A DNA stretch of 64,000 bases, from assembly GCA_963827275.1 (NCBI GenBank), contig CAWHAA010000005.1, forward strand, positions 640,001 through 704,000. Direction: 5' to 3'. Origin of the DNA: an uncultured Spirochaetota bacterium (GTDB lineage: Bacteria; Spirochaetota; UBA4802; UBA5550). Positions 43,415 through 53,083 of the stretch are shown here, piece by piece (positions within the stretch are counted from its first letter, which is position 1; each line of letters starts with the position of its first letter). Made by a program: the position numbers and the translations under genes. The notes beneath the pieces were generated by a model. It did not search any database, was not told the DNA's origin, and saw only the letters and a program-made list of their open reading frames with translations.

Positions 43415-44074
43415 ATGGACCTCACCGCGGTATTATTCGATCTTGACGGCACGCTCCTGGATACCCTGGAGGACCTTGCCTCTTCCATGAACGCGGCGCT
43501 TGAAAAAAACGGGTTCCCCCGGCACCCGGTCGATCGATACCGGCACTTTGTCGGCGCCGGAATGCGCGAGCTGGCCCGGCGGGCCCTGCCGCCCGGCACG
43601 GACGAAGGGACCCTGCTGCGGCTGATAAACGGCATGCGCGACGAATACTCGCGCAGGTGGGCAGACGCCACAAAACTTTACCCCGGCGTGAGCGCCATGC
43701 TCGACGCCCTGAGGGGCAAGGGCATCCGCTGTTCGGTACTCTCCAACAAGTCAGACGATTTCACGCTGATGCTCTGCCATCGCTTCCTGGATAAATGGAA
43801 TTTCGAGATACTGCGGGGCGCAACGGAAACGGTCCCGAAAAAGCCCGACCCCACGGCCGCCCTCATGATCGCCGGGAGCATGGGGATCGACCCAGCGCGC
43901 TTCGCGTGTCTGGGCGACACCGGAAGCGATATGGCCATGGCGATCGCCGCCGGCATGTATCCCGCAGGCGCCCTCTGGGGGTTCCGCGACGCCGGGGAGC
44001 TGACCGCGGCAGGCGCCAGGGTGCTGCTGGAGCGGCCGGAGGACTTTCTGGGTCTTTTTGATGTCAAAATTTAG
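43415..44074 (+). CDS. HAD hydrolase (phosphoglycolate phosphatase-like)
   Basis: FDLDGTLLDT, LSNK, KKPDP, GDTGSD, WGFR. Confidence 0.9.
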   Translation: MDLTAVLFDLDGTLLDTLEDLASSMNAALEKNGFPRHPVDRYRHFVGAGMRELARRALPPGTDEGTLLRLINGMRDEYSRRWADATKLYPGVSAMLDALRGKGIRCSVLSNKSDDFTLMLCHRFLDKWNFEILRGATETVPKKPDPTAALMIAGSMGIDPARFACLGDTGSDMAMAIAAGMYPAGALWGFRDAGELTAAGARVLLERPEDFLGLFDVKI

Positions 44075-44234
44075 GGGTCAGAGTAAGGTTTTACCGATAA
44101 CTATCGGTCAATAGGGGGGATCAGAGCAACATTCCACCGATAACTATCGGTCAAGAGGGGGGTCAGAGCAACATTCCACCGATAACTATCGGTCAAGAGG
44201 GGGGTCAGAGCAACATTCCACCGATAACTATCGG
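44074..44234 (+). repeat. Tandem array of four ~42-bp units (GGGGTCAGAG-linker-ACCGATAACTATCGG)
   Basis: Palindrome starts at 44093, 44136, 44178, 44220; fills the gap between two convergent stop codons. Confidence 0.95.
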
Positions 44235-44236
44235 CC

Positions 44237-47200
44237 CTACCCCACCCGACGAACAGAAACAATCGTCACATCATCCATAACTTTCTTTCCCCCGCCGGCA
44301 AACCGCTGAACAAGCTTTTCCCCCGCCTCATCGAGCCCGGTCCCGGGATAGACGGCGGCAAGCGCATCCGCGATCAGCTCAAATTCATCCGCTCCGTCCG
44401 ACTTTGCCGCAGCCAATTCCGCGAGGCCGTCGGTATAGAGGAACAGGGTATCGCCCTGCTTGAATGAATGGGTCTCTTCCTTGTAATTGATCTTATTCGA
44501 AAGCCCGACAATGGGGTTCCGGGGATTGACCACTACCACCTCGCTCCCCTTGAGCAGGAACTGCGCCGGGACTCCTGCCGTAGAGATGATGATTACAGAC
44601 GACGCGAGGTCGATGTCCGCGACAACACCGGTGAACACGAGCTGGGACTGGCCGCCCTGGTGGGTAAAGCGCTGGTTAAGAAAATTAATGATCTCCGCCG
44701 GTGAGCCCAGCGCCCCCTTGACCGCGGCGTATTCCGACAGTATCTTCACCGTGTTCAGCGACGCGTTGATGCCGTGGCCGGTAGCGTCGGCGATGAAGGC
44801 GCGGACCACGCCAGGCCGCAGCTCGAAGATATCATAAACGTCTCCGCCAATATCGAGGAGCGGCCGGTAGAGGACGCCCGTTTCAAAGCCCGCGATAGCT
44901 TCCTGGCGCGTCATGAGCTTCTGCTGGAAAGCCCTGGCGATCAGCAGGTCATCCTGGATGATTTTTTCCCACTCGTGCATCTGTATCGCCGATTCCTTTA
45001 TGTCCATGCTCCGCTGGAAGAGGCCGGTTATGGCGTCCTTCTCCTTGCGGAGCCCGTTGATGACGGATTGTTCCATCTCGAGCATCTGCTTGATGGCGAG
45101 CTGGTTCTCGATGCGCAGCATGAGCTCGTGCCGCTTGAAGGGCTTGGTGATGTAGTCATTGGCCCCGGTCCTGAACCCCCGCGCCATGTGCCCGGCCTGG
45201 TCGAGCGCGGTGAGCATGATGACCGGGATGGCGCTGCCTTTCTCCGACTGGCGCATCTTCTCGCACACCTCGTATCCGCTCATGCCGGGGAGCATGAGGT
45301 CGAGGAGCACCAGGTCGACGTCCCGGCGCTCAATGATGTCCAGCGCGGCGGGGCCGGTCGCGGTCGTGATGAGCCGGTGGCCGCACGACGAACAGAGGTT
45401 TTCAAGGATCTTCAGGCCCACCGGGTCGTCGTCAACCGCGAGGATCGTGGCCTTTGCCACGGAGGGGTTCACCGTGATATTAAATTCGATAGCGTCAGGC
45501 TTCGCCGCTTGAAGGCCGGACACGTCGCCTGCCACTGCACGGCCCCCGTATGTTTTCATGGTGATACCCGCCCCCGGCGGTTCTGACGGAAGCTCGAAGG
45601 TGAACACGCTCCCTGTCCCCTTTTCGCTTTCGGCCCATATCGCGCCCCCGTGGAGCTCCACCAGGTGCTTCGTGATGGCAAGTCCCAGCCCCGTGCCGTC
45701 CGCGGTCCGCTTCTCCGCGGCTTCCGCCTGTGTGAACGGGCTCCAGATCCTGGCCATGTCCTCATCCCCGATGCCGATGCCGGTGTCCGCCACGGACACG
45801 CGCACCCCGCCCTTGTCCGCGGCCCCGGCCTTCACCGTGATGCTCCCCCTCTCGGTGAACTTGATCGCGTTGCCCAGGAGGTTCAGCATCACCTGGTATG
45901 TCCTGTTGCGGTCCGCCTTGATCCTCGGGACCTCGCCGATCTCGGCGGTGAGTGCGATATTCTTTTCCCTCGCCACAGGCTGCATGAGCGAGACCGCGGA
46001 ATTGATGATGTCGCCGAGCGACAGCTCCTCGATGTACAGGTCGGCCCTGCCGGCGCGGAGTTTGCTGAAGTCAAGTATGGAGGTCACGAGGTCATTGAGC
46101 CGTGAAGCGCTGGAGATAATGAGGTCCAGGTTTTCTTTCTGCCTGGCGTTAGTCCCGCCCATGGACCCGTCAGAAAGCGACTCGGCGATGCCGATGATTC
46201 CGTGAAGGGGCGTGCGCAGCTCGTGCGTGGTGGTGGCCAGGAAGTCGTCTTTCATCTGGTCAACAACAAGGAGGTCGGCATGGGCTTTTTCAAGATCGGT
46301 ATGCACCTGCGAAAAACGAACCGCGAGAGTTGATGCGAAAATTATTATCATCACGAAGAAGCCTTCTGAAACAGGGGGATGCAATTTGGTAATTTCCAGA
46401 AATGAAAAAATACTTATCAAATAGGTTAATGACAAGGCAAAAGTTCCTGAAAAAATCCTTAAGGAATATGGCCTGCTTCTCAGTTTCCCCAAAACACATA
46501 TAACATCACCATAAAAAACAACAAGCAAGGCTGATATAATAAATATTTTGAATATATATTTATTATAGAATACGATATGATGTGTAACAACCAGCTCAAT
46601 ACAAATGACAGCAATCAATGAGGATAGGACAGCCTGCATTATATGTGTAAAAATGTTGTATGGTATTTTTAAAAAGGAATGTATAAAATTGATATAACAA
46701 ATGCATATCACGATGGCACAAATATATGTGCTGATTATGTACACAAGATGATTATCAAATATATAAAAATTTAATCCGTGGAATCCAAAAGACCAAAGCC
46801 CAAACGCCAACGACAATAGTGAAAAATGCAGATAATATTTTTCTTTTCTATAAAAATAAAAGAACAAGAAGTATATTGTGATAAATAAATTGACTGCCGT
46901 AAGTATAGTATACCATACAACATGCCGTATAAAATAATTAAATATTAGATTAGATGGTCCAATTTTGATCGGATAGACAAATCCAGATTTATTATCGATT
47001 GTCCCGGTCTTAATTGCCAGGATATTCTCCCCCGATTTCAGTAGTTCATTCGGAATTTTTACTATTGTCGGCTTGCCGATTCGATGCGACAGTTCCTTCT
47101 CATTTCTGAAATCTCTTGATTCATAAAATCTATTGCCGTTCAAATATAACCGGACTCCACAATAATGAAGCGGCATATACAATGATAAATTATTAATTTT

Positions 47201-47485
47201 ATCATCAATTACAAGATTAATACGGAACCAGGCAAAGCCGGTATGATTTCGATATTTCTTAATATCCAGCCAGGATACATGAGGATATTGTAAGTCATAT
47301 TGTTCGGGTTTTATTTTAAGGCTGGAACAATCAGTTTCGCTGTCCGGGATAAAAACCCATTTGTCGTTAAAGCTGTAAATTATTTCTTTGTTAATAAAGA
47401 TGGAAGGTTCATTCGCGAATGCGTGATTGCTGCCAATCAAAAAAAAAATTATATATATTAGAAACTCTTTACGAATGCCGAGCAT
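44237..47485 (-). CDS. Membrane hybrid sensor: extracellular jelly-roll domain, multi-TM, HisKA-HATPase, REC, SpoIIE/PP2C phosphatase
   Basis: GFAWFR..LYLNG..GENILAI; TM bundle; THELRTPL, NLLGNAIKFT, DTGIG, GTGLGL; VDDD..LDLMLPG..TKPF; GGDVYD, ADATGHG, YTDG, DDVT. Confidence 0.92.
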   Translation of the reverse strand: MLGIRKEFLIYIIFFLIGSNHAFANEPSIFINKEIIYSFNDKWVFIPDSETDCSSLKIKPEQYDLQYPHVSWLDIKKYRNHTGFAWFRINLVIDDKINNLSLYMPLHYCGVRLYLNGNRFYESRDFRNEKELSHRIGKPTIVKIPNELLKSGENILAIKTGTIDNKSGFVYPIKIGPSNLIFNYFIRHVVWYTILTAVNLFITIYFLFFYFYRKEKYYLHFSLLSLAFGLWSFGFHGLNFYIFDNHLVYIISTYICAIVICICYINFIHSFLKIPYNIFTHIMQAVLSSLIAVICIELVVTHHIVFYNKYIFKIFIISALLVVFYGDVICVLGKLRSRPYSLRIFSGTFALSLTYLISIFSFLEITKLHPPVSEGFFVMIIIFASTLAVRFSQVHTDLEKAHADLLVVDQMKDDFLATTTHELRTPLHGIIGIAESLSDGSMGGTNARQKENLDLIISSASRLNDLVTSILDFSKLRAGRADLYIEELSLGDIINSAVSLMQPVAREKNIALTAEIGEVPRIKADRNRTYQVMLNLLGNAIKFTERGSITVKAGAADKGGVRVSVADTGIGIGDEDMARIWSPFTQAEAAEKRTADGTGLGLAITKHLVELHGGAIWAESEKGTGSVFTFELPSEPPGAGITMKTYGGRAVAGDVSGLQAAKPDAIEFNITVNPSVAKATILAVDDDPVGLKILENLCSSCGHRLITTATGPAALDIIERRDVDLVLLDLMLPGMSGYEVCEKMRQSEKGSAIPVIMLTALDQAGHMARGFRTGANDYITKPFKRHELMLRIENQLAIKQMLEMEQSVINGLRKEKDAITGLFQRSMDIKESAIQMHEWEKIIQDDLLIARAFQQKLMTRQEAIAGFETGVLYRPLLDIGGDVYDIFELRPGVVRAFIADATGHGINASLNTVKILSEYAAVKGALGSPAEIINFLNQRFTHQGGQSQLVFTGVVADIDLASSVIIISTAGVPAQFLLKGSEVVVVNPRNPIVGLSNKINYKEETHSFKQGDTLFLYTDGLAELAAAKSDGADEFELIADALAAVYPGTGLDEAGEKLVQRFAGGGKKVMDDVTIVSVRRVG

Positions 47486-47511
47486 ATGTTTTTCTTGTTG
47501 TAAAATTTTGG

Positions 47512-47736
47512 TTAATATTTAACATTATTATTGATCACATTGTCACTGAAATCTTTGAAATTATCCTTTTTTTCTATAAGCGCCTGACAATCCTGCAGGC
47601 TAACATCATACCCTTTATTTTTAAACCATTGCTGGAGAGTATTTTTATCGGTGCCATCTATTAACAAATCAATTAATTCTTTACCGACCACCTGATCATT
47701 TGCTTTATCAGCTATGAAATCAATGAAATCAGACAT
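47512..47736 (-). CDS. 74-aa Nif11-like small protein, putative RiPP/signal precursor ending ...NNNVKY
   Basis: GGAGG RBS; FIDFI..D....KEL..WFKNKGYDVS..D pattern resembling Nif11-type leaders; adjacent to radical SAM genes; 26 bp upstream of the sensor gene. Confidence 0.65.
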   Translation of the reverse strand: MSDFIDFIADKANDQVVGKELIDLLIDGTDKNTLQQWFKNKGYDVSLQDCQALIEKKDNFKDFSDNVINNNVKY

Positions 47737-47757
47737 ATTTACCTCCAAAATTAAATA

Positions 47758-47785
47758 ATCGTAGCGGGAATACTATAAATGTCAA
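47758..47785 (-). promoter_or_regulatory. Sigma70-like promoter for the peptide-sensor transcript
   Basis: Minus strand TTGACA-16 nt-TACGAT just upstream of the RBS. Confidence 0.6.
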
Positions 47786-47837
47786 TAAAAATATATGCAC
47801 AAAAACAATTTGTAGATCAATAATACTATTGATATCG

Positions 47838-49424
47838 ATGAAAGCAATGTCACATAACAGGATATCCATCGTATCTTTGGGTAATACTCGCAAAGAATAT
47901 CCATTTTTCATGAATTGGCTTTATCTAACAAGCCCGGGAATTCATTATTTAAGAACCGCCCTCGAATTGAATGGTATAAAAGCAGTTCTTATTGATAAAG
48001 TAGACAAAAATCTTACAACAGATGAAATAATCAAAATTTTACAGAATATAAATCCTGAAATAATACTTTTCAACCAGTTTTACTCAACCAGAGAAGAAAT
48101 TAAGCAGATTTGCATATCGTTCCCCAAAAATGCGATTCGCGGTATCGGCGGTCATGATGCCACCTTCCATTCCATGTCGTTATCAGAAAATGAATTTTCC
48201 CGGCAGTATTCCCATGCGGATTTCGTTTGGCAGGGGGAAATTGAAAATGGCTTTGCTTCTTTTATCCGAAATTTTCAAAAAAAGGATAGTCCGGTTTGCG
48301 TCAATAACATCAACAACAGAGTGCAAGATTTGGATGACCTGCCTGTGCTGAAACATGACGATTACATAAGTGAGTTGGCATTTCTGGTCACTTCCCGAGG
48401 ATGCATGTCTGGTGGCTGCGATTTTTGCACCACGCCAAACTTCTATCATGATGGATGGCGGCCAAGGAGTGTCGCGCATGTTTCACATGAATTGCGCAAC
48501 ATAAAAGCATCAGGGCGGTTTCATATAAACATAACCGATGATAATTTCCTCGGCTTGGGCAAAAAAGATCTTATGAGAGGCGTCGATATTATTCGCCGTT
48601 GCAGCGAGGACGGTTTAAAACTTTTTATAATGACCTCCGTAGAGCAGATTGTGAAAGCCGACAGGCTGGACCTTCTACAAGAATTCAAAGGCACTGTTAT
48701 CAAGGTATTTCTCGGCGTTGAGAACTTTAATCCTTCAGCTTTGAGAAAACTAGGGAAGAAGGTTGATCCAGGGAATCATACATATAATAGCCTTCGTGCG
48801 CTGAACGCACTCTATGACAATGGGATATCACCTCATCTTGGCTATATAAATTTCAATCCAGAAACATCATGTGACGAACTTGAGCACAGCGCACATTTTC
48901 TCCATCAGTACAATCATGAAGCGTCGCTATTCAATTATTTTTATACTAAAATGGGGATATTCGAGGGAACAAAACATCACGAGAGATATGCAGGGAGAAA
49001 AGATTCCATCGATTTTTATGATGGAAACTATTCATACGAATTCCATGATCGGAACACGGCAGCTGTGTTCGCACTGCTCACCATGGTGCTTGATCATACA
49101 CGCCTGGTCGATTTTCTCCATTTCGAAGCAACACATTTGCTCTATATGAACCAGCTCACTGGAACCTCGGCCGGGAAAAAATATCTTGAATTGAAAAAAA
49201 GATCAAGTGAACAAAACTACGAGTTTTTTATCAACGTTTTAGAGATCAGCCGCAAGAGAGGGTCTCTGAATGTCATCCTCGATTTAATTGATGATTATAA
49301 AAGAAAGACAAGAAGATTGATCCCGGATTATAAAAAATTAATTCAACAGATCGCTGGCATTTCTTCTTATATTCTCAAGGAGCCGCTTGCATACATGGAT
49401 AAGATCGATGCAAACGAACCATAG
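47838..49424 (+). CDS. Cobalamin-binding radical SAM enzyme
   Basis: N-terminal B12-binding region (PGIHYLRTAL..GGHDAT..GEIE), TSRGCMSGGCDFC (CX4CX2C), WRPRS, ITDDNF, LGVEN; AT-rich. Confidence 0.88.
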   Translation: MKAMSHNRISIVSLGNTRKEYPFFMNWLYLTSPGIHYLRTALELNGIKAVLIDKVDKNLTTDEIIKILQNINPEIILFNQFYSTREEIKQICISFPKNAIRGIGGHDATFHSMSLSENEFSRQYSHADFVWQGEIENGFASFIRNFQKKDSPVCVNNINNRVQDLDDLPVLKHDDYISELAFLVTSRGCMSGGCDFCTTPNFYHDGWRPRSVAHVSHELRNIKASGRFHINITDDNFLGLGKKDLMRGVDIIRRCSEDGLKLFIMTSVEQIVKADRLDLLQEFKGTVIKVFLGVENFNPSALRKLGKKVDPGNHTYNSLRALNALYDNGISPHLGYINFNPETSCDELEHSAHFLHQYNHEASLFNYFYTKMGIFEGTKHHERYAGRKDSIDFYDGNYSYEFHDRNTAAVFALLTMVLDHTRLVDFLHFEATHLLYMNQLTGTSAGKKYLELKKRSSEQNYEFFINVLEISRKRGSLNVILDLIDDYKRKTRRLIPDYKKLIQQIAGISSYILKEPLAYMDKIDANEP

Positions 49425-49496
49425 CAATAAGAGAGTTTTCAAGCCGTTATAAATCAATTGATATTTGATTATATTATTCTAAAACGGAAAAGATAT

Positions 49497-50324
49497 ATGA
49501 AAAAATCGATGCAATACTATGAAGATAATTACGAAGATTATTTTAATGGTTGGTCAAAAGATCACATCCATTATGGATTCTGGTTTGATGATACCGGGTC
49601 CCATGAAGAATCACTTGAGAACCATACCCGAGAAGTGATAAAGCATTTGAATATCCAACCGGGAAACCGTGTTTTAGATGCAGGGTGCGGCTCAGGTGGT
49701 TCCAGCAGATATATTGTTGAAAACTTTGCGGTAGAAACTGTTGGGGTAATGCTCTCGCCGACACTCCTCAAGGCGGCCACTGAATTGTCAAAAAACCTCC
49801 CGAACAGTCACATGCTGAGGTTTTATAATCAAGATTACACAAATTCTGACTTTCAAGATGCATCTTTTGACCGCATATTTTCGATTGAAAGCGTATGCCA
49901 GGAACCGGCAAAAGATAAATTTATTTCAGAAGCATACCGCCTGCTGCGTCCTCAAGGCCGTCTGGTGGTCGCCGATTTCTTTCTTCTTCGAAACAACTTG
50001 AATGAAAAAGAATTACGCAGTTACCGGGAATGGTGCAATGGATGGTTCATTCCCGATCTTGCAACAACGGATGAATTCCGTGAAATGCTTACACGGCAGG
50101 GGTTTGTAAATATTGAATATCATGACAAGACAAATCTCCTGAAAAAAAGCGGCAAAATGATGCATGATGCGGCAAAAGAACGACTCCCGGAAGTATATCT
50201 TCAGTATAATCGCGGAAATCTGCCGCAATCCAGGCTTGCGCATGTCATTGCCACATACCGGCAATGGGAATGCATCGAGTGGAAAATATGGTGCTTTGGC
50301 ATGTTTGTGGCGGATAAATTATAA
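49497..50324 (+). CDS. SAM-dependent methyltransferase (gamma-tocopherol/sterol MT-like)
   Basis: HIHYGFW, VLDAGCGSGG, FDRIFSIES, YRLLRPQGRLVVADF; AT-rich. Confidence 0.88.
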   Translation: MKKSMQYYEDNYEDYFNGWSKDHIHYGFWFDDTGSHEESLENHTREVIKHLNIQPGNRVLDAGCGSGGSSRYIVENFAVETVGVMLSPTLLKAATELSKNLPNSHMLRFYNQDYTNSDFQDASFDRIFSIESVCQEPAKDKFISEAYRLLRPQGRLVVADFFLLRNNLNEKELRSYREWCNGWFIPDLATTDEFREMLTRQGFVNIEYHDKTNLLKKSGKMMHDAAKERLPEVYLQYNRGNLPQSRLAHVIATYRQWECIEWKIWCFGMFVADKL

Positions 50325-50443
50325 CTCTTCCGCTTAGTTTCTGACAAGACAGAGTCAACTCTAATAACACGATTTTAGCTTGACGATGCTGCTGGCATCT
50401 ATATGCTCCTATTGATAATCGCTGATCTTTTTCAACAGCAATC

Positions 50444-51424
50444 ATGAGTATTAAAACACAAATCTTCCAAACATGCTCGTCCATTAGATTCGACACCGTG
50501 CCGATAGTCGATACCGACATGTATCGCAGCCTGAACGAACAGCTTATGCTGTTATGCCGCTCCCTTCCCCGGAGCATGCAGGCGGAGGCAATGATGTTCC
50601 TGATGGAATATTTCCGGCTCCAGGTGGGGGAGCCCCTCGACTTCTTCAGGCACTATTACGCGCCCGCCTGGTCCGCGTTATACTGGATTGCGGGAGCTCC
50701 CCGCTCCGCCGCGGGCTTTTCCGATACTGACCTGGATGCCGCGCTCTGCGGCCAGGCCATGGCCATGCTGCTCCATTCCCTTGACGACCATCTGGTGGAC
50801 GGGGGCATCCCCGTGTCGCACCTCGCGCTCCTGGTGCGGTCGCAAGCATGGCGCCGCATGAGCGGGGCCACTGACCGCTTCTGCGCCGGCCTCGCGGGCG
50901 GGAGCGACATCGCCGCGGCCCTCATCGACAATTATTACAGCGGCATAACAGAGCGCGATGCGCCGTCATCGCTCGACGCCTACTGCGACCTCTTTCGCCG
51001 GCAGATGGCCACCTGGGTGGTCATGCCGGTCCTGGCCGCGCTGAAGACCGGCGGCGATGACGCGTTCGTCGCGGGGGTGCGGAGCGCGTACGAGTCCTTC
51101 GGCATCGCCTGGCGGCTCCTCGACGACCTCCAGGACCTGGAATCGGACATGGCTGACGGCACCAGGAGCGCCGTGTATGTCTGCATGGACGACAACGGCC
51201 GCCGCCTGTGGGACTCGGTCAGAGCGGGCGGAAAGCGATCAGCGGGCACAACAGCGGACAGGCTATGCGCGCAGATACAGGGCGCATCAATCACTGAAAC
51301 AATCGCCCGCCGGATTGTGGGCGAGCTCGACAATGCCTCGTCCATTGCCGACCGGCTGGAACTGCCCGGCCTCGCCGGTGAATTCAGGGCCCTCGCAGGG
51401 CCGATAGCTGAACGGCAGGCCTGA
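50444..51424 (+). CDS. Class I isoprenoid-synthase-fold protein (prenyltransferase/terpene synthase-like); start uncertain
   Basis: All-helical; Asp-rich motifs HSLDDHLVD and FGIAWRLLDDLQDLESDMADG. Confidence 0.75.
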   Translation: MSIKTQIFQTCSSIRFDTVPIVDTDMYRSLNEQLMLLCRSLPRSMQAEAMMFLMEYFRLQVGEPLDFFRHYYAPAWSALYWIAGAPRSAAGFSDTDLDAALCGQAMAMLLHSLDDHLVDGGIPVSHLALLVRSQAWRRMSGATDRFCAGLAGGSDIAAALIDNYYSGITERDAPSSLDAYCDLFRRQMATWVVMPVLAALKTGGDDAFVAGVRSAYESFGIAWRLLDDLQDLESDMADGTRSAVYVCMDDNGRRLWDSVRAGGKRSAGTTADRLCAQIQGASITETIARRIVGELDNASSIADRLELPGLAGEFRALAGPIAERQA

Positions 51425-51425
51425 C

Positions 51426-52475
51426 ATGAACAGCGGGATACCGGACGCCATACGCGAGGCCATAGAGCATGACCTTCTCGGCATCGAGGTGACCACGCGG
51501 TGCAACAGCGCGTGCTCCCACTGCTTCGCCCGCGCCGGCAGGACCGGCGCGCGTGAGCTTTCCGCCGATACGGTCGCGGCGATCGCCGCCGAGGGATGGC
51601 AGCTCGGGTACCGCGCCCTGCACCTCACCGGCGGAGAGCCGCTCCTCTGGGGGCCGCCCGGAGGCTGCATCGAGCGCGTGCTCGAACTCGGGTACGAGCG
51701 GGTCTTCATCAACACCAACGGCACCCTCCTCACCGGGGAGAAGGCCCGGGCCCTGGCCGGGTTCGGGGGGCGGATCACGATCTCCATCAGCCTGCAGGGA
51801 CCGGAGGAGCTGCACGACTCCGTGCGGGGCCGCGGCTCATTCCGCGCGGCAATCGCGGGTCTTGAACAGGCACTGGCTGCCGGGCTCACCGTGAGTATTT
51901 TCACCTCAGTGGGGAAACGCCTTGTCCCGCAGCTCCCCCGTTTCGCTGAATTCCTGTTCAGGGAGTACCCCGGGATACAGGACCTCACCCTCATACAGCT
52001 TATCCGCGTGCCCGGCGACGCCATCGACCTGTCCGGAGAGCTCCTTGCGCCCGGGGACTTCATCGCCATGGTGCGCGCGGCGGCCCTGCTGAACCTGTAT
52101 GGCTGCCGCGTGAACGTGCTCCAGAACCCCCTCGCGGTGGCCGTGTCCCGGGCCATGGGCATGCCCTGGCTCGCGCCCGCGCCCCACCTGCACCGGGGCG
52201 GCGGCGTCATCGTCATGGCGGACCTGAGCATCACCCTTGCCCATTCCACGCGGGAATCGTTCGGCGCCTATGCGCCGGGCATGCTGGGCACGGTGCTTGC
52301 CTCACCGGAGTACCTGGAAGCGGTTGCGCCTGACGACAATGCCTGCGCCGGGTGCGGGTTTCTGGCCATTTGCAGGGAAAACGGCATGCTCCAGCCATCG
52401 GAGTGGTTCAGAAGCATGGGGTCAGAGTACTTTTGCCGGGAGGTGCTCGCTCTTGCCGGTTCGGGGTCAGAGTAA
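51426..52475 (+). CDS. Radical SAM protein with C-terminal Cys cluster (SPASM-like)
   Basis: EVTTRCNSACSHC, LTGGEPLL, INTNGTLL, ISLQG..HDSVRG, CAGCGFLAIC..FC; starts 1 bp after the prenyltransferase stop. Confidence 0.88.
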   Translation: MNSGIPDAIREAIEHDLLGIEVTTRCNSACSHCFARAGRTGARELSADTVAAIAAEGWQLGYRALHLTGGEPLLWGPPGGCIERVLELGYERVFINTNGTLLTGEKARALAGFGGRITISISLQGPEELHDSVRGRGSFRAAIAGLEQALAAGLTVSIFTSVGKRLVPQLPRFAEFLFREYPGIQDLTLIQLIRVPGDAIDLSGELLAPGDFIAMVRAAALLNLYGCRVNVLQNPLAVAVSRAMGMPWLAPAPHLHRGGGVIVMADLSITLAHSTRESFGAYAPGMLGTVLASPEYLEAVAPDDNACAGCGFLAICRENGMLQPSEWFRSMGSEYFCREVLALAGSGSE

Positions 52476-52613
52476 AAGGGGCTGTCTACCGATAACTATC
52501 GGCCGTGAAGTGGGGGGTCAGAGCAAGCCGGTTACCGATAACTATCGGCCTCCCGGGGGGTCAGAGTAAATCCACTACCGATAACTATCGGTCCTCCACG
52601 GGGGTCAGAGTAA
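52418..52613 (+). repeat. Second array of the bipartite repeat, with variable linkers
   Basis: GGGGTCAGAG at 52418, 52463, ~52514, ~52557, 52601; ACCGATAACTATCGG at 52488, 52534, 52577; same orientation as the 44074 array. Confidence 0.95.
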
Positions 52614-52615
52614 GG

Positions 52616-53083
52616 CTACTGCATCTTCAGGTGCCTGATCACTTCCTCGATATCGGGGATTTCAGGGATTTCGTAGACCCTGATCCAGTCGATCTTCCCG
52701 TCCTCATCAACAAGTATATTCGCCCTGCCGGATATCCCCGCCTTTTCAATGAAAAGGCCGTATTTCTTCGCCATGTCCCCGTGCGGCCAGAAGTCGGAGA
52801 GGATGTCGGTGTTTTCCAGCTCGAGGTACTCGGACCATTCCTTCTTGCAGGGCACGCTGTCGACGCTGATACCCAGCGCCACGGTATTGAGCTTTTCGAG
52901 GTCGGCGTGTTTCGCTTCAAGGCTCCGCATCTGTATCTCGCACACCGACGTCCACGCCAGGGGATGAAACGAGATGAGCAGCTTCTTCCCCTTAAAAGAC
53001 GATAATGATATCTCCTGCCCGTACTGGTTTTTCAGCGTAAAATCAGGGGCCGCATCGCCAACCTTTAATTGTATCTCTCTCAT
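52616..53083 (-). CDS. Peroxiredoxin (AhpE/AhpC-TSA family)
   Basis: VGDAAPDFTL, FHPLAWTSVC, GISVDS, LSDFWPHG. Confidence 0.9.
   Translation of the reverse strand: MREIQLKVGDAAPDFTLKNQYGQEISLSSFKGKKLLISFHPLAWTSVCEIQMRSLEAKHADLEKLNTVALGISVDSVPCKKEWSEYLELENTDILSDFWPHGDMAKKYGLFIEKAGISGRANILVDEDGKIDWIRVYEIPEIPDIEEVIRHLKMQ

Follow-up and report, generated by a model that had tools for sequence, protein, structure and literature searches.

A spirochete locus coupling a tyrosine-ending peptide, a prenyltransferase-like enzyme and a sensor: a probable and apparently undescribed variant of prenyl-peptide signaling

Introduction

In a 64,000-nucleotide (nt) stretch of DNA from an uncultured Spirochaetota bacterium (GenBank assembly GCA_963827275.1, contig CAWHAA010000005.1, positions 640,001 to 704,000 of the forward strand; this whole stretch is called the window here), the gene of a 74-amino-acid peptide lies next to the gene of a membrane sensor, and four enzyme genes run divergently from these two. 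An earlier note on this DNA had proposed a comQXP-like locus, in which the peptide is modified by the four enzymes and read by the sensor. Which of the six genes belong together, and is the peptide the ligand of its neighbor?

[quoted passage not shown] A literature search by title or the start of the abstract, with most subscription journals and supplements outside its scope, found no paper on a family that combines the peptide, the prenyltransferase-like enzyme and the enzyme of the radical S-adenosylmethionine (SAM) class seen here. The locus is real and probably a variant of prenyl-peptide signaling, apparently an undescribed one.

Results

Genes of the locus

All six open reading frames (ORFs) are genuine genes at the positions first reported for them. 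With their main parts, they are as follows.

44237..47485, minus strand: hybrid sensor of 1082 amino acids, with an extracytoplasmic domain and 7TM-DISM followed by HisKA-HATPase-REC-PP2C (SpoIIE); assigned by Pfam, with the H-box, REC and PP2C motifs located
46292..47485, minus strand: variable input part of the sensor (codons 1-398), with a GC content of 0.33 and a third-codon-position GC content (GC3) of 0.34, versus 0.61 and 0.80 in the kinase core
47512..47736, minus strand: 74-amino-acid precursor, whose helical leader is remotely Nif11-like and whose variable tail ends in an invariant Tyr
47829..49424, plus strand: accessory B12-binding-type radical SAM enzyme (B12-rSAM) with the variant motif CX4CX2C, present in 7/55 spirochete peptide loci
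49497..50324, plus strand: accessory class I SAM methyltransferase, present in 5/55 spirochete peptide loci
50444..51424, plus strand: core trans-IDS-fold enzyme, a predicted peptide prenyltransferase (PT), with DDxxxD as first and WRxxDDxxD as second motif
51426..52475, plus strand: core radical SAM enzyme (rSAM) that has CX3CX2C and, at its C-terminus, the cysteine set CX2CX5C...C; some genomes have it fused to PT
46292..50554, no strand: exchangeable low-GC cassette made of the sensor input, the peptide, the accessory enzymes and the first 37 PT codons, delimited by the GC profile and by metagenome contigs of runs X2 and X10

The peptide ORF has a GGAGG ribosome-binding site 6 nt before its ATG, and 26 nt separate its stop codon from the sensor start, as had been noted before. 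The locus of genome G009 is collinear with the window over 11.5 kb at 85.5% identity; thus, the arrangement is not an assembly artifact. Judged by the G009 homologue, the B12-rSAM gene probably starts at the ATG at 47847. On the sensor, the Pfam families 7TMR-DISM_7TM, HisKA, HATPase_c, Response_reg and SpoIIE all scored above their cut-offs. The B12-rSAM product matched Radical_SAM and, weakly, B12-binding, the core rSAM matched Radical_SAM, and the methyltransferase fell in class I, so that these three enzymes have only generic family matches.

The peptide and the sensor input are exchanged together

The GC content drops from about 0.62 to 0.28-0.42 at roughly positions 46,250 to 50,450, and this low-GC block reaches from within the sensor gene to PT. 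Eight public metagenome runs were compared with the window. In runs X2 and X10, which come from two studies, single contigs join position 46291 to 50555 across 1,768 other bases, with breakpoints at sensor codon 399 and PT codon 38. Contigs of X4, X6 and X13 likewise diverge at 50555. In X2, the right flank differs from the window at 102 of 4,446 bases (about 98% identity) and the left flank at 46 of 751 (94% beside the left junction), from which we infer that the two strains belong to one species. X2 also contains pieces of the window's own cassette, 390-454 bases long with 0-1 differences. Thus, both cassette versions occur in one sample. Since the input domain, the spacer, the peptide and the PT start require 1,556 of the 1,768 bases, neither accessory gene fits into the replacement.

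Among 31 peptide-sensor pairs, peptide identity tracked the sensor input when the kinase core was held constant (partial r 0.71, reached in 0/2,000 permutations, kin not being independent) and did not track the kinase core when the input was held constant (partial r -0.03). In the pair L116/L126, the cores are 97% identical, the inputs 32% and the peptides 29%, and homology resumes at sensor codon 398; in L100/L121, the corresponding values are 94%, 36% and 28%. In two species pairs, L116/L126 and the window against the run contigs, the sensor breakpoint falls at codons 398-399 and the kinase core stays native. The window and G009 show the reverse pattern, with 81% identity in the core, 92% in the input and 89% in the peptide. 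The N-terminal sensor part is lower in GC than the core in 31/31 pairs; membrane domains are AT-rich regardless, but in the window the two parts differ in GC3 as well (0.34 versus 0.80).

Within the peptide, the tail (positions -7 to -2) was more conserved than the leader where sensor inputs were similar (identity 0.87 versus 0.61 in 5 pairs, not independent of one another, with 50-70% input identity) and less conserved where they were not (0.07 versus 0.31 in 323 pairs with input identity under 35%). Small as the sample is, this contrast points to a ligand of several residues. These sequence comparisons indicate that, between close relatives, peptide and sensor input move jointly in a single DNA cassette. 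By analogy, cassette replacement with co-variation is the pattern of comQXP pherotypes, and in this respect the comQXP-like character proposed earlier was upheld.

A peptide family with one invariant tail residue

Around PT matches in related genomes, 18 peptide homologues were found, and 18/18 end in Tyr. A profile built from 20 sequences matched 62/401 genomes of the phylum, 4 of them through marginal matches in long frames. After iteration over the fetched loci, 91/112 unique hits had a terminal Tyr, versus 49/1,922 long ORFs (2.5%); the 112 include a probable false positive (L130) and a read-through frame (L148), both scored as non-Tyr. Two paralogue groups account for 18/21 of the non-Tyr hits. 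The terminal Tyr is the sole conserved tail position, and only this last residue is invariant across groups, in line with the importance that had been attached to it. Trp stands at -3 in 5/91 Tyr-ending peptides, and the window peptide has no Trp in its tail. In genomes covered by both the PT scan and the peptide scan, with profile donors left out, the peptide was present in 7/9 PT-positive and 1/8 PT-negative genomes. By these comparisons, the peptide is a real conserved gene.

In the second paralogue group, the same leader precedes a conserved hydrophobic non-Tyr tail, near a second locus (L106:7418-7642, L109:7745-7969, L111:12168-12392 and L112:9550-9843).

The leader had been called Nif11-like. 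The window peptide matched no Pfam or NCBIfam family. Among 96 peptides, Nif11 was the most recurrent family of either library, yet its matches were weak (PF07862, 9/96, best E 0.013; TIGR03798, 8/96, best E 0.0012), and none of the 96 came near the curated cut-offs of either model. The nearest named clusters in the ESM protein language-model space were Nif11 at 0.78-0.80, which is a lead only. Among the 25 families shown for these peptides in the library scans, there was no NHLP leader model. Set beside the four-helix N-terminal bundle and flexible C-terminus of Nif11 leaders, a structure model of the peptide has five helices and a low-confidence tail (mean predicted local distance difference test [pLDDT] 70). 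With this model, Foldseek (best E 2.7) and fold comparison (best Z 4.3) gave nothing usable; a solved Nif11 leader was not among the listed matches, which excludes nothing. As far as sequence goes, the leader is remotely Nif11-like and not a Nif11 member. A double-Gly-type site (G-G or G-A within the last 25 residues) occurs in 11/95 peptides and is absent from the window peptide, as the earlier note had it.

The conserved core and its partners

PT matched 27/41 related genomes, and a PT-based scan found 78 loci in Spirochaetota, Desulfobacterota, Cyanobacteria and Bacteroidota. In 55 spirochete loci with a Tyr-ending peptide (loci fetched twice counted once; many are truncated at contig ends or lie in separate parts of the genome), a sensor of the window's family was present in 51, PT in 31 and rSAM in 31. 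Far fewer carried a geranylgeranyl-reductase-like gene (13), the window's B12-rSAM (7), an isopentenyl diphosphate (IPP) isomerase (5) or the window's methyltransferase (5). Among the 44 PT loci not labeled as spirochete, a Tyr-ending peptide was found in 34 (including four weak hits, E 0.006-0.044, added by position), rSAM in 35 and an adenylate cyclase-AAA-TPR gene in 30, usually in the order cyclase, PT, rSAM, peptide.

Judged by this distribution, the conserved core is the peptide, PT and rSAM, and the B12-rSAM and the methyltransferase are accessory, optional cargo. The pathway of four enzymes that had been suggested is thus halved: PT and the second rSAM stand as its core, and the peptide is indeed conserved with these two and with the sensor. 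In spirochetes, the core is joined by the 7TM-DISM sensor; Desulfobacterota loci instead carry the adenylate cyclase-AAA-TPR protein, which has no Pfam membrane domain. In several of the latter loci, an S8 or C25 protease gene follows the peptide. In all, 51/55 spirochete and 30/44 other loci have a signal-transducing partner.

A trans-IDS-fold enzyme with an altered motif signature

PT had only sub-threshold matches in Pfam, polyprenyl_synt being weak in 11/27 members (best E 0.001). The PT model (pLDDT 93) matched trans-isoprenyl diphosphate synthases (Z 23.3, root mean square deviation 2.9, 284 aligned residues); the best matches are polyprenyl synthases, and both Asp-rich motifs are intact. 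PDB sequence searches with the peptide and PT returned no relative at E < 0.01, and a viral fold library gave no match at E < 0.001.

Chain elongation is marked by an RRG-type motif after the first Asp motif and by Phe-Gln before the second, as was checked against the two canonical synthases of this genome and against PDB alignments. The RRG-type motif is present in both canonical synthases and in 0/99 PT sequences, and Trp-Arg aligns to the Phe-Gln of the canonical enzymes in 99/99. The Arg of this pair, Arg224, is invariant (99/99) and lies three residues before the second Asp motif, where Trp prenyltransferases carry Gln. StheQ Gln212 and PalQ Gln197 sit at this offset, and the excerpted PalQ study proposes that Gln197 recognizes the indole NH (PMC10853753). 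An invariant Arg in place of Gln would fit a different acceptor, and the sole invariant candidate is the terminal Tyr. From these residues, we consider it probable that PT acts on that Tyr (by O- or C-prenylation) and not in isoprenoid chain elongation.

The core radical SAM enzyme and accessory genes

In the core rSAM, C26, C30 and C33 (CX3CX2C) are kept in at least 95% of 76 sequences. C307, C310, C316 and C337 are the sole conserved Cys of its C-terminus, with CX2CX5C in 75/75. We take this CX2CX5C...C set to be the ligand pattern of the second SPASM cluster. There was no SPASM match in Pfam, and the Cys are too few for two auxiliary clusters. PT and rSAM form one ORF of about 670-690 amino acids in seven loci (L142, L157, L177, L178, L186, L188 and L208). 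Close named homologues of rSAM occur in Leptospira semungkisensis, L. langatensis and L. perolatii. For the reductase-like and IPP isomerase genes, one representative each passes its NCBIfam cut-off, and two other reductase-like ones do not.

Several loci depart from the common form. L177 and L178 carry non-spirochete labels but resemble the spirochete-type L188 and are possibly mis-binned. In L022, L023, L024, L025 and L028, small PIN-like and other genes of toxin-antitoxin type (by eye) and a second PT copy are repeatedly inserted between PT and rSAM in related genomes. L196, L199 and L202 (two cyanobacteria and one Bacteroidota; e.g., L199:9881-13332) lack rSAM and carry, in this order, PT, a Tyr peptide, a 270-300-amino-acid protein of no known family and a flavin adenine dinucleotide-dependent oxidoreductase. 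That the 270-300-amino-acid protein, which follows the peptide in these three loci, is an oxidative decarboxylase was considered and is unsupported; the ESM Atlas named no family for it.

Signal output

The motifs for His, REC and PP2C are all retained in the sensor, and 26 STAS matches were found in the genome. Therefore, the PP2C partner switching that had been envisaged is plausible, but it does not define the system. Four different output modules flank the peptide family. In Leptospira-type loci, the same input domain with a Tyr peptide feeds PP2C alone. At L050:8097-12706 (G000:C5, about 588,100-592,700), a second, paralogous locus of this genome, another Tyr-ending peptide lies upstream of a LuxR regulator and a 7TM-DISM-PAS-HisKA_3 kinase that has the same input domain. 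PT and rSAM are missing there, a FabH-like gene precedes the set, and several members of the genus keep this arrangement, with a tail of another type. The L050 peptide may use the window's enzymes in trans. 7TM-DISM proteins without a peptide also occur in this genome.

Other features near the locus

The following features belong to the surroundings of the locus.

47758..47785, minus strand: chance-level match to a sigma-70-like consensus, upstream of the peptide
44072..44240, no strand: cluster of 42-43-nt intergenic repeats resembling repetitive extragenic palindromes (REP-like), not locus specific
52467..52620, no strand: second cluster of the same 42-43-nt REP-like family

The promoter that the peptide had been credited with is weaker than first described: its match covers 10/12 consensus positions, and the 6 sites found compare with 4.6 ± 2.1 expected. 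The REP-like repeats have a palindromic core, with 138 core copies in 61 clusters genome-wide. As cassette ends they were rejected, given these 138 copies and true breakpoints inside the sensor and PT genes.

Discussion

With a probability of roughly 0.65, we read the locus, on the sequence evidence above, as a strain-specific peptide signaling system of the ComQXP/PalPXQ type, a variant with predicted Tyr prenylation that is swapped as a cassette. The peptide gene, the sensor input domain and the optional tailoring genes would be exchanged as one unit, the conserved PT would prenylate the terminal Tyr, and the 7TM-DISM sensor would take a short piece from the C-terminus as its ligand. On balance, we favor as ligand the final 5-8 residues, which an unlinked protease would set free before export. 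It is fairly likely that the sensor relays the signal from His to REC, switches the PP2C domain and acts on STAS anti-anti-sigma proteins. Tentatively, the core rSAM could modify the same Tyr, most simply by an oxidative decarboxylation like that of MftC. Chemical dialects would be added by the accessory genes, those for the B12-rSAM, the methyltransferase, the geranylgeranyl-reductase-like enzyme, the IPP isomerase or a second PT. The full combination remains rather doubtful: a diderm pheromone in which a Tyr-specific PT and an rSAM with one auxiliary cluster give a prenylated, decarboxylated head group, 7TM-DISM receptors read it, and a single recombination that swaps input, peptide and tailoring enzymes switches the dialect of strains within one species.

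The comparison with known systems uses excerpts of the cited papers. PalP-PalX-PalQ of Paenibacillus alvei (PMC10853753), like the window, has a histidine kinase, a long-leader precursor, an IDS-fold prenyltransferase and a conserved C-terminal aromatic residue, and its three-gene cluster is likewise described there without a dedicated protease. However, PalQ accepts only a C-terminal Trp and has Gln197, whereas the window family has a terminal Tyr and Arg at that position; the window also has the core rSAM, accessory enzymes that vary between loci and a hybrid sensor of 7TM-DISM type, and the hosts are diderms. ComQXPA of Bacillus subtilis shares with the window an IDS-fold enzyme and a peptide with a hypervariable C-terminus (PMC4008528, PMC4408185), as well as a sensor with a variable N-terminal input and a conserved cytoplasmic core, the same pattern of variability being described for ComX and ComP (PMC4008528). 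In contrast, ComX, as excerpted, has an internal Trp within 5-10 residues of its C-terminus, and ComQXPA consists of four co-oriented genes with a HisKA_3 kinase and ComA; the window has a terminal Tyr, a HisKA hybrid with PP2C and divergent enzymes, and most of its PT sits outside the variable block. L050 has HisKA_3 and LuxR, but no PT. By sequence and by these excerpts, the locus would function in the manner of ComQXP, and its build is nearest to that of PalPXQ, while it departs from both in Trp, Gln and gene order.

Two other systems bear on single parts. Mycofactocin MftC, like the core rSAM, has C-terminal iron-sulfur cysteines and an adjoining precursor that ends in Tyr; it decarboxylates this Tyr in making a redox cofactor (excerpt of PMC10114670). 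The core rSAM has only four C-terminal Cys, its peptide has no conserved penultimate Val, and it scored 60 bits against the NCBIfam MftC cut-off of 265. So far as the excerpt goes, the likeness that makes MftC the nearest precedent lies in its substrate and not in its sequence. The Nif11-leader peptides of MppE/MppC (10.64898/2026.10.04.756588; PMC12715784, both in excerpt) have a long helical leader as here and establish that leader-dependent prenylation exists. Unlike the window PT, MppC is an ABBA-type Trp geranyltransferase acting on a lanthipeptide, and the L(X)4L and C39 cleavage signals of Nif11 leaders are not conserved in the window family.

Several observations weigh against the signaling reading. 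On export and processing, no C39 exporter was matched in this 92%-complete genome (the earlier note, too, saw no exporter), the window's locus has no protease gene, and no common cleavage motif was found across 95 peptides. Twelve Leptospira-type genomes (L084-L095; e.g., L084:8289-9782) have PT with intact motifs adjoining a conserved leader-like non-Tyr paralogue, but in the fetched locus they lack the Tyr peptide, the rSAM and the 7TM-DISM sensor that L081-L083 have at this place, and four cyanobacterial PT loci have no peptide nearby. The profile behind the 91/112 count has a terminal Tyr column, which favors Tyr-ending matches. The tail-versus-leader contrast depends on its 5 related pairs, and the content of the 1,768-base replacement is deduced from size alone. 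Linkage by itself correlates peptide with sensor input, adjacent genes co-transferring regardless of function, and in 21 Desulfobacterota loci the peptide showed no co-variation with the cyclase TPR region (partial r about -0.1).

Some of these points would suit other explanations. The precursor might be a carrier for one Tyr, which PT and rSAM would turn into a small molecule, a prenylated phenol or one of tyramine type; once cut off, this would reach the sensor by diffusion across membranes. The last residue alone is invariant across groups, spirochetes have no linked exporter or protease, the Desulfobacterota partner has no Pfam membrane domain, and the accessory genes resemble prenyl-chain tailoring. 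However, tails are better conserved than leaders where sensor inputs are similar, and several Desulfobacterota loci have an S8 or C25 protease gene after that of the peptide, so that we consider a carrier unlikely. [quoted passage not shown] Cassette polymorphism with two types in one sample would also fit this, as would variable accessory enzymes, but exporter and immunity genes are absent from the recurring neighbor families of the peptide loci, neither Cys nor a cationic pattern is seen in the short tail, and a signal-transducing partner is present in most loci.

That the peptide is modified without being the ligand, while the sensor responds to some other cue and governs the enzymes, would make the co-variation hitch-hiking in a mobile AT-rich block. 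Neighboring genes do co-transfer, the Desulfobacterota TPR region does not co-vary, and peptide-free 7TM-DISM proteins exist in this genome; against this stand sensor breakpoints at the same codon (398-399) in two species pairs with the native kinase core kept, and tail conservation that goes with sensor type, which leave hitch-hiking very unlikely. It is barely credible that PT builds isoprenoid chains like any ordinary synthase and that the peptide is a small protein unconnected with it. Its best fold matches, its intact Asp-rich motifs and the 12 Leptospira-type and 4 cyanobacterial loci without a Tyr peptide are all consistent with an ordinary synthase, but the RRG-type motif is missing and Phe-Gln replaced by Trp-Arg throughout, the genome has two canonical synthases elsewhere, and the PT-rSAM-peptide order recurs across phyla together with PT-rSAM fusions.

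Under the signaling reading, the locus likely provides a chemical language specific to the strain; languages of this kind have so far been described for Trp peptides of Gram-positive bacteria only. If true, pherotype-type peptide signaling reaches spirochetes, with related loci in sulfate reducers, and a Tyr-directed trans-IDS-like prenyltransferase, with Arg for Gln as a testable determinant, would be new enzymology. With this reading, a specific class of ligands is also proposed for the input domains of 7TM-DISM sensors. The rSAM homologues in L. semungkisensis, L. langatensis and L. perolatii mean that cultured species probably make the system testable.

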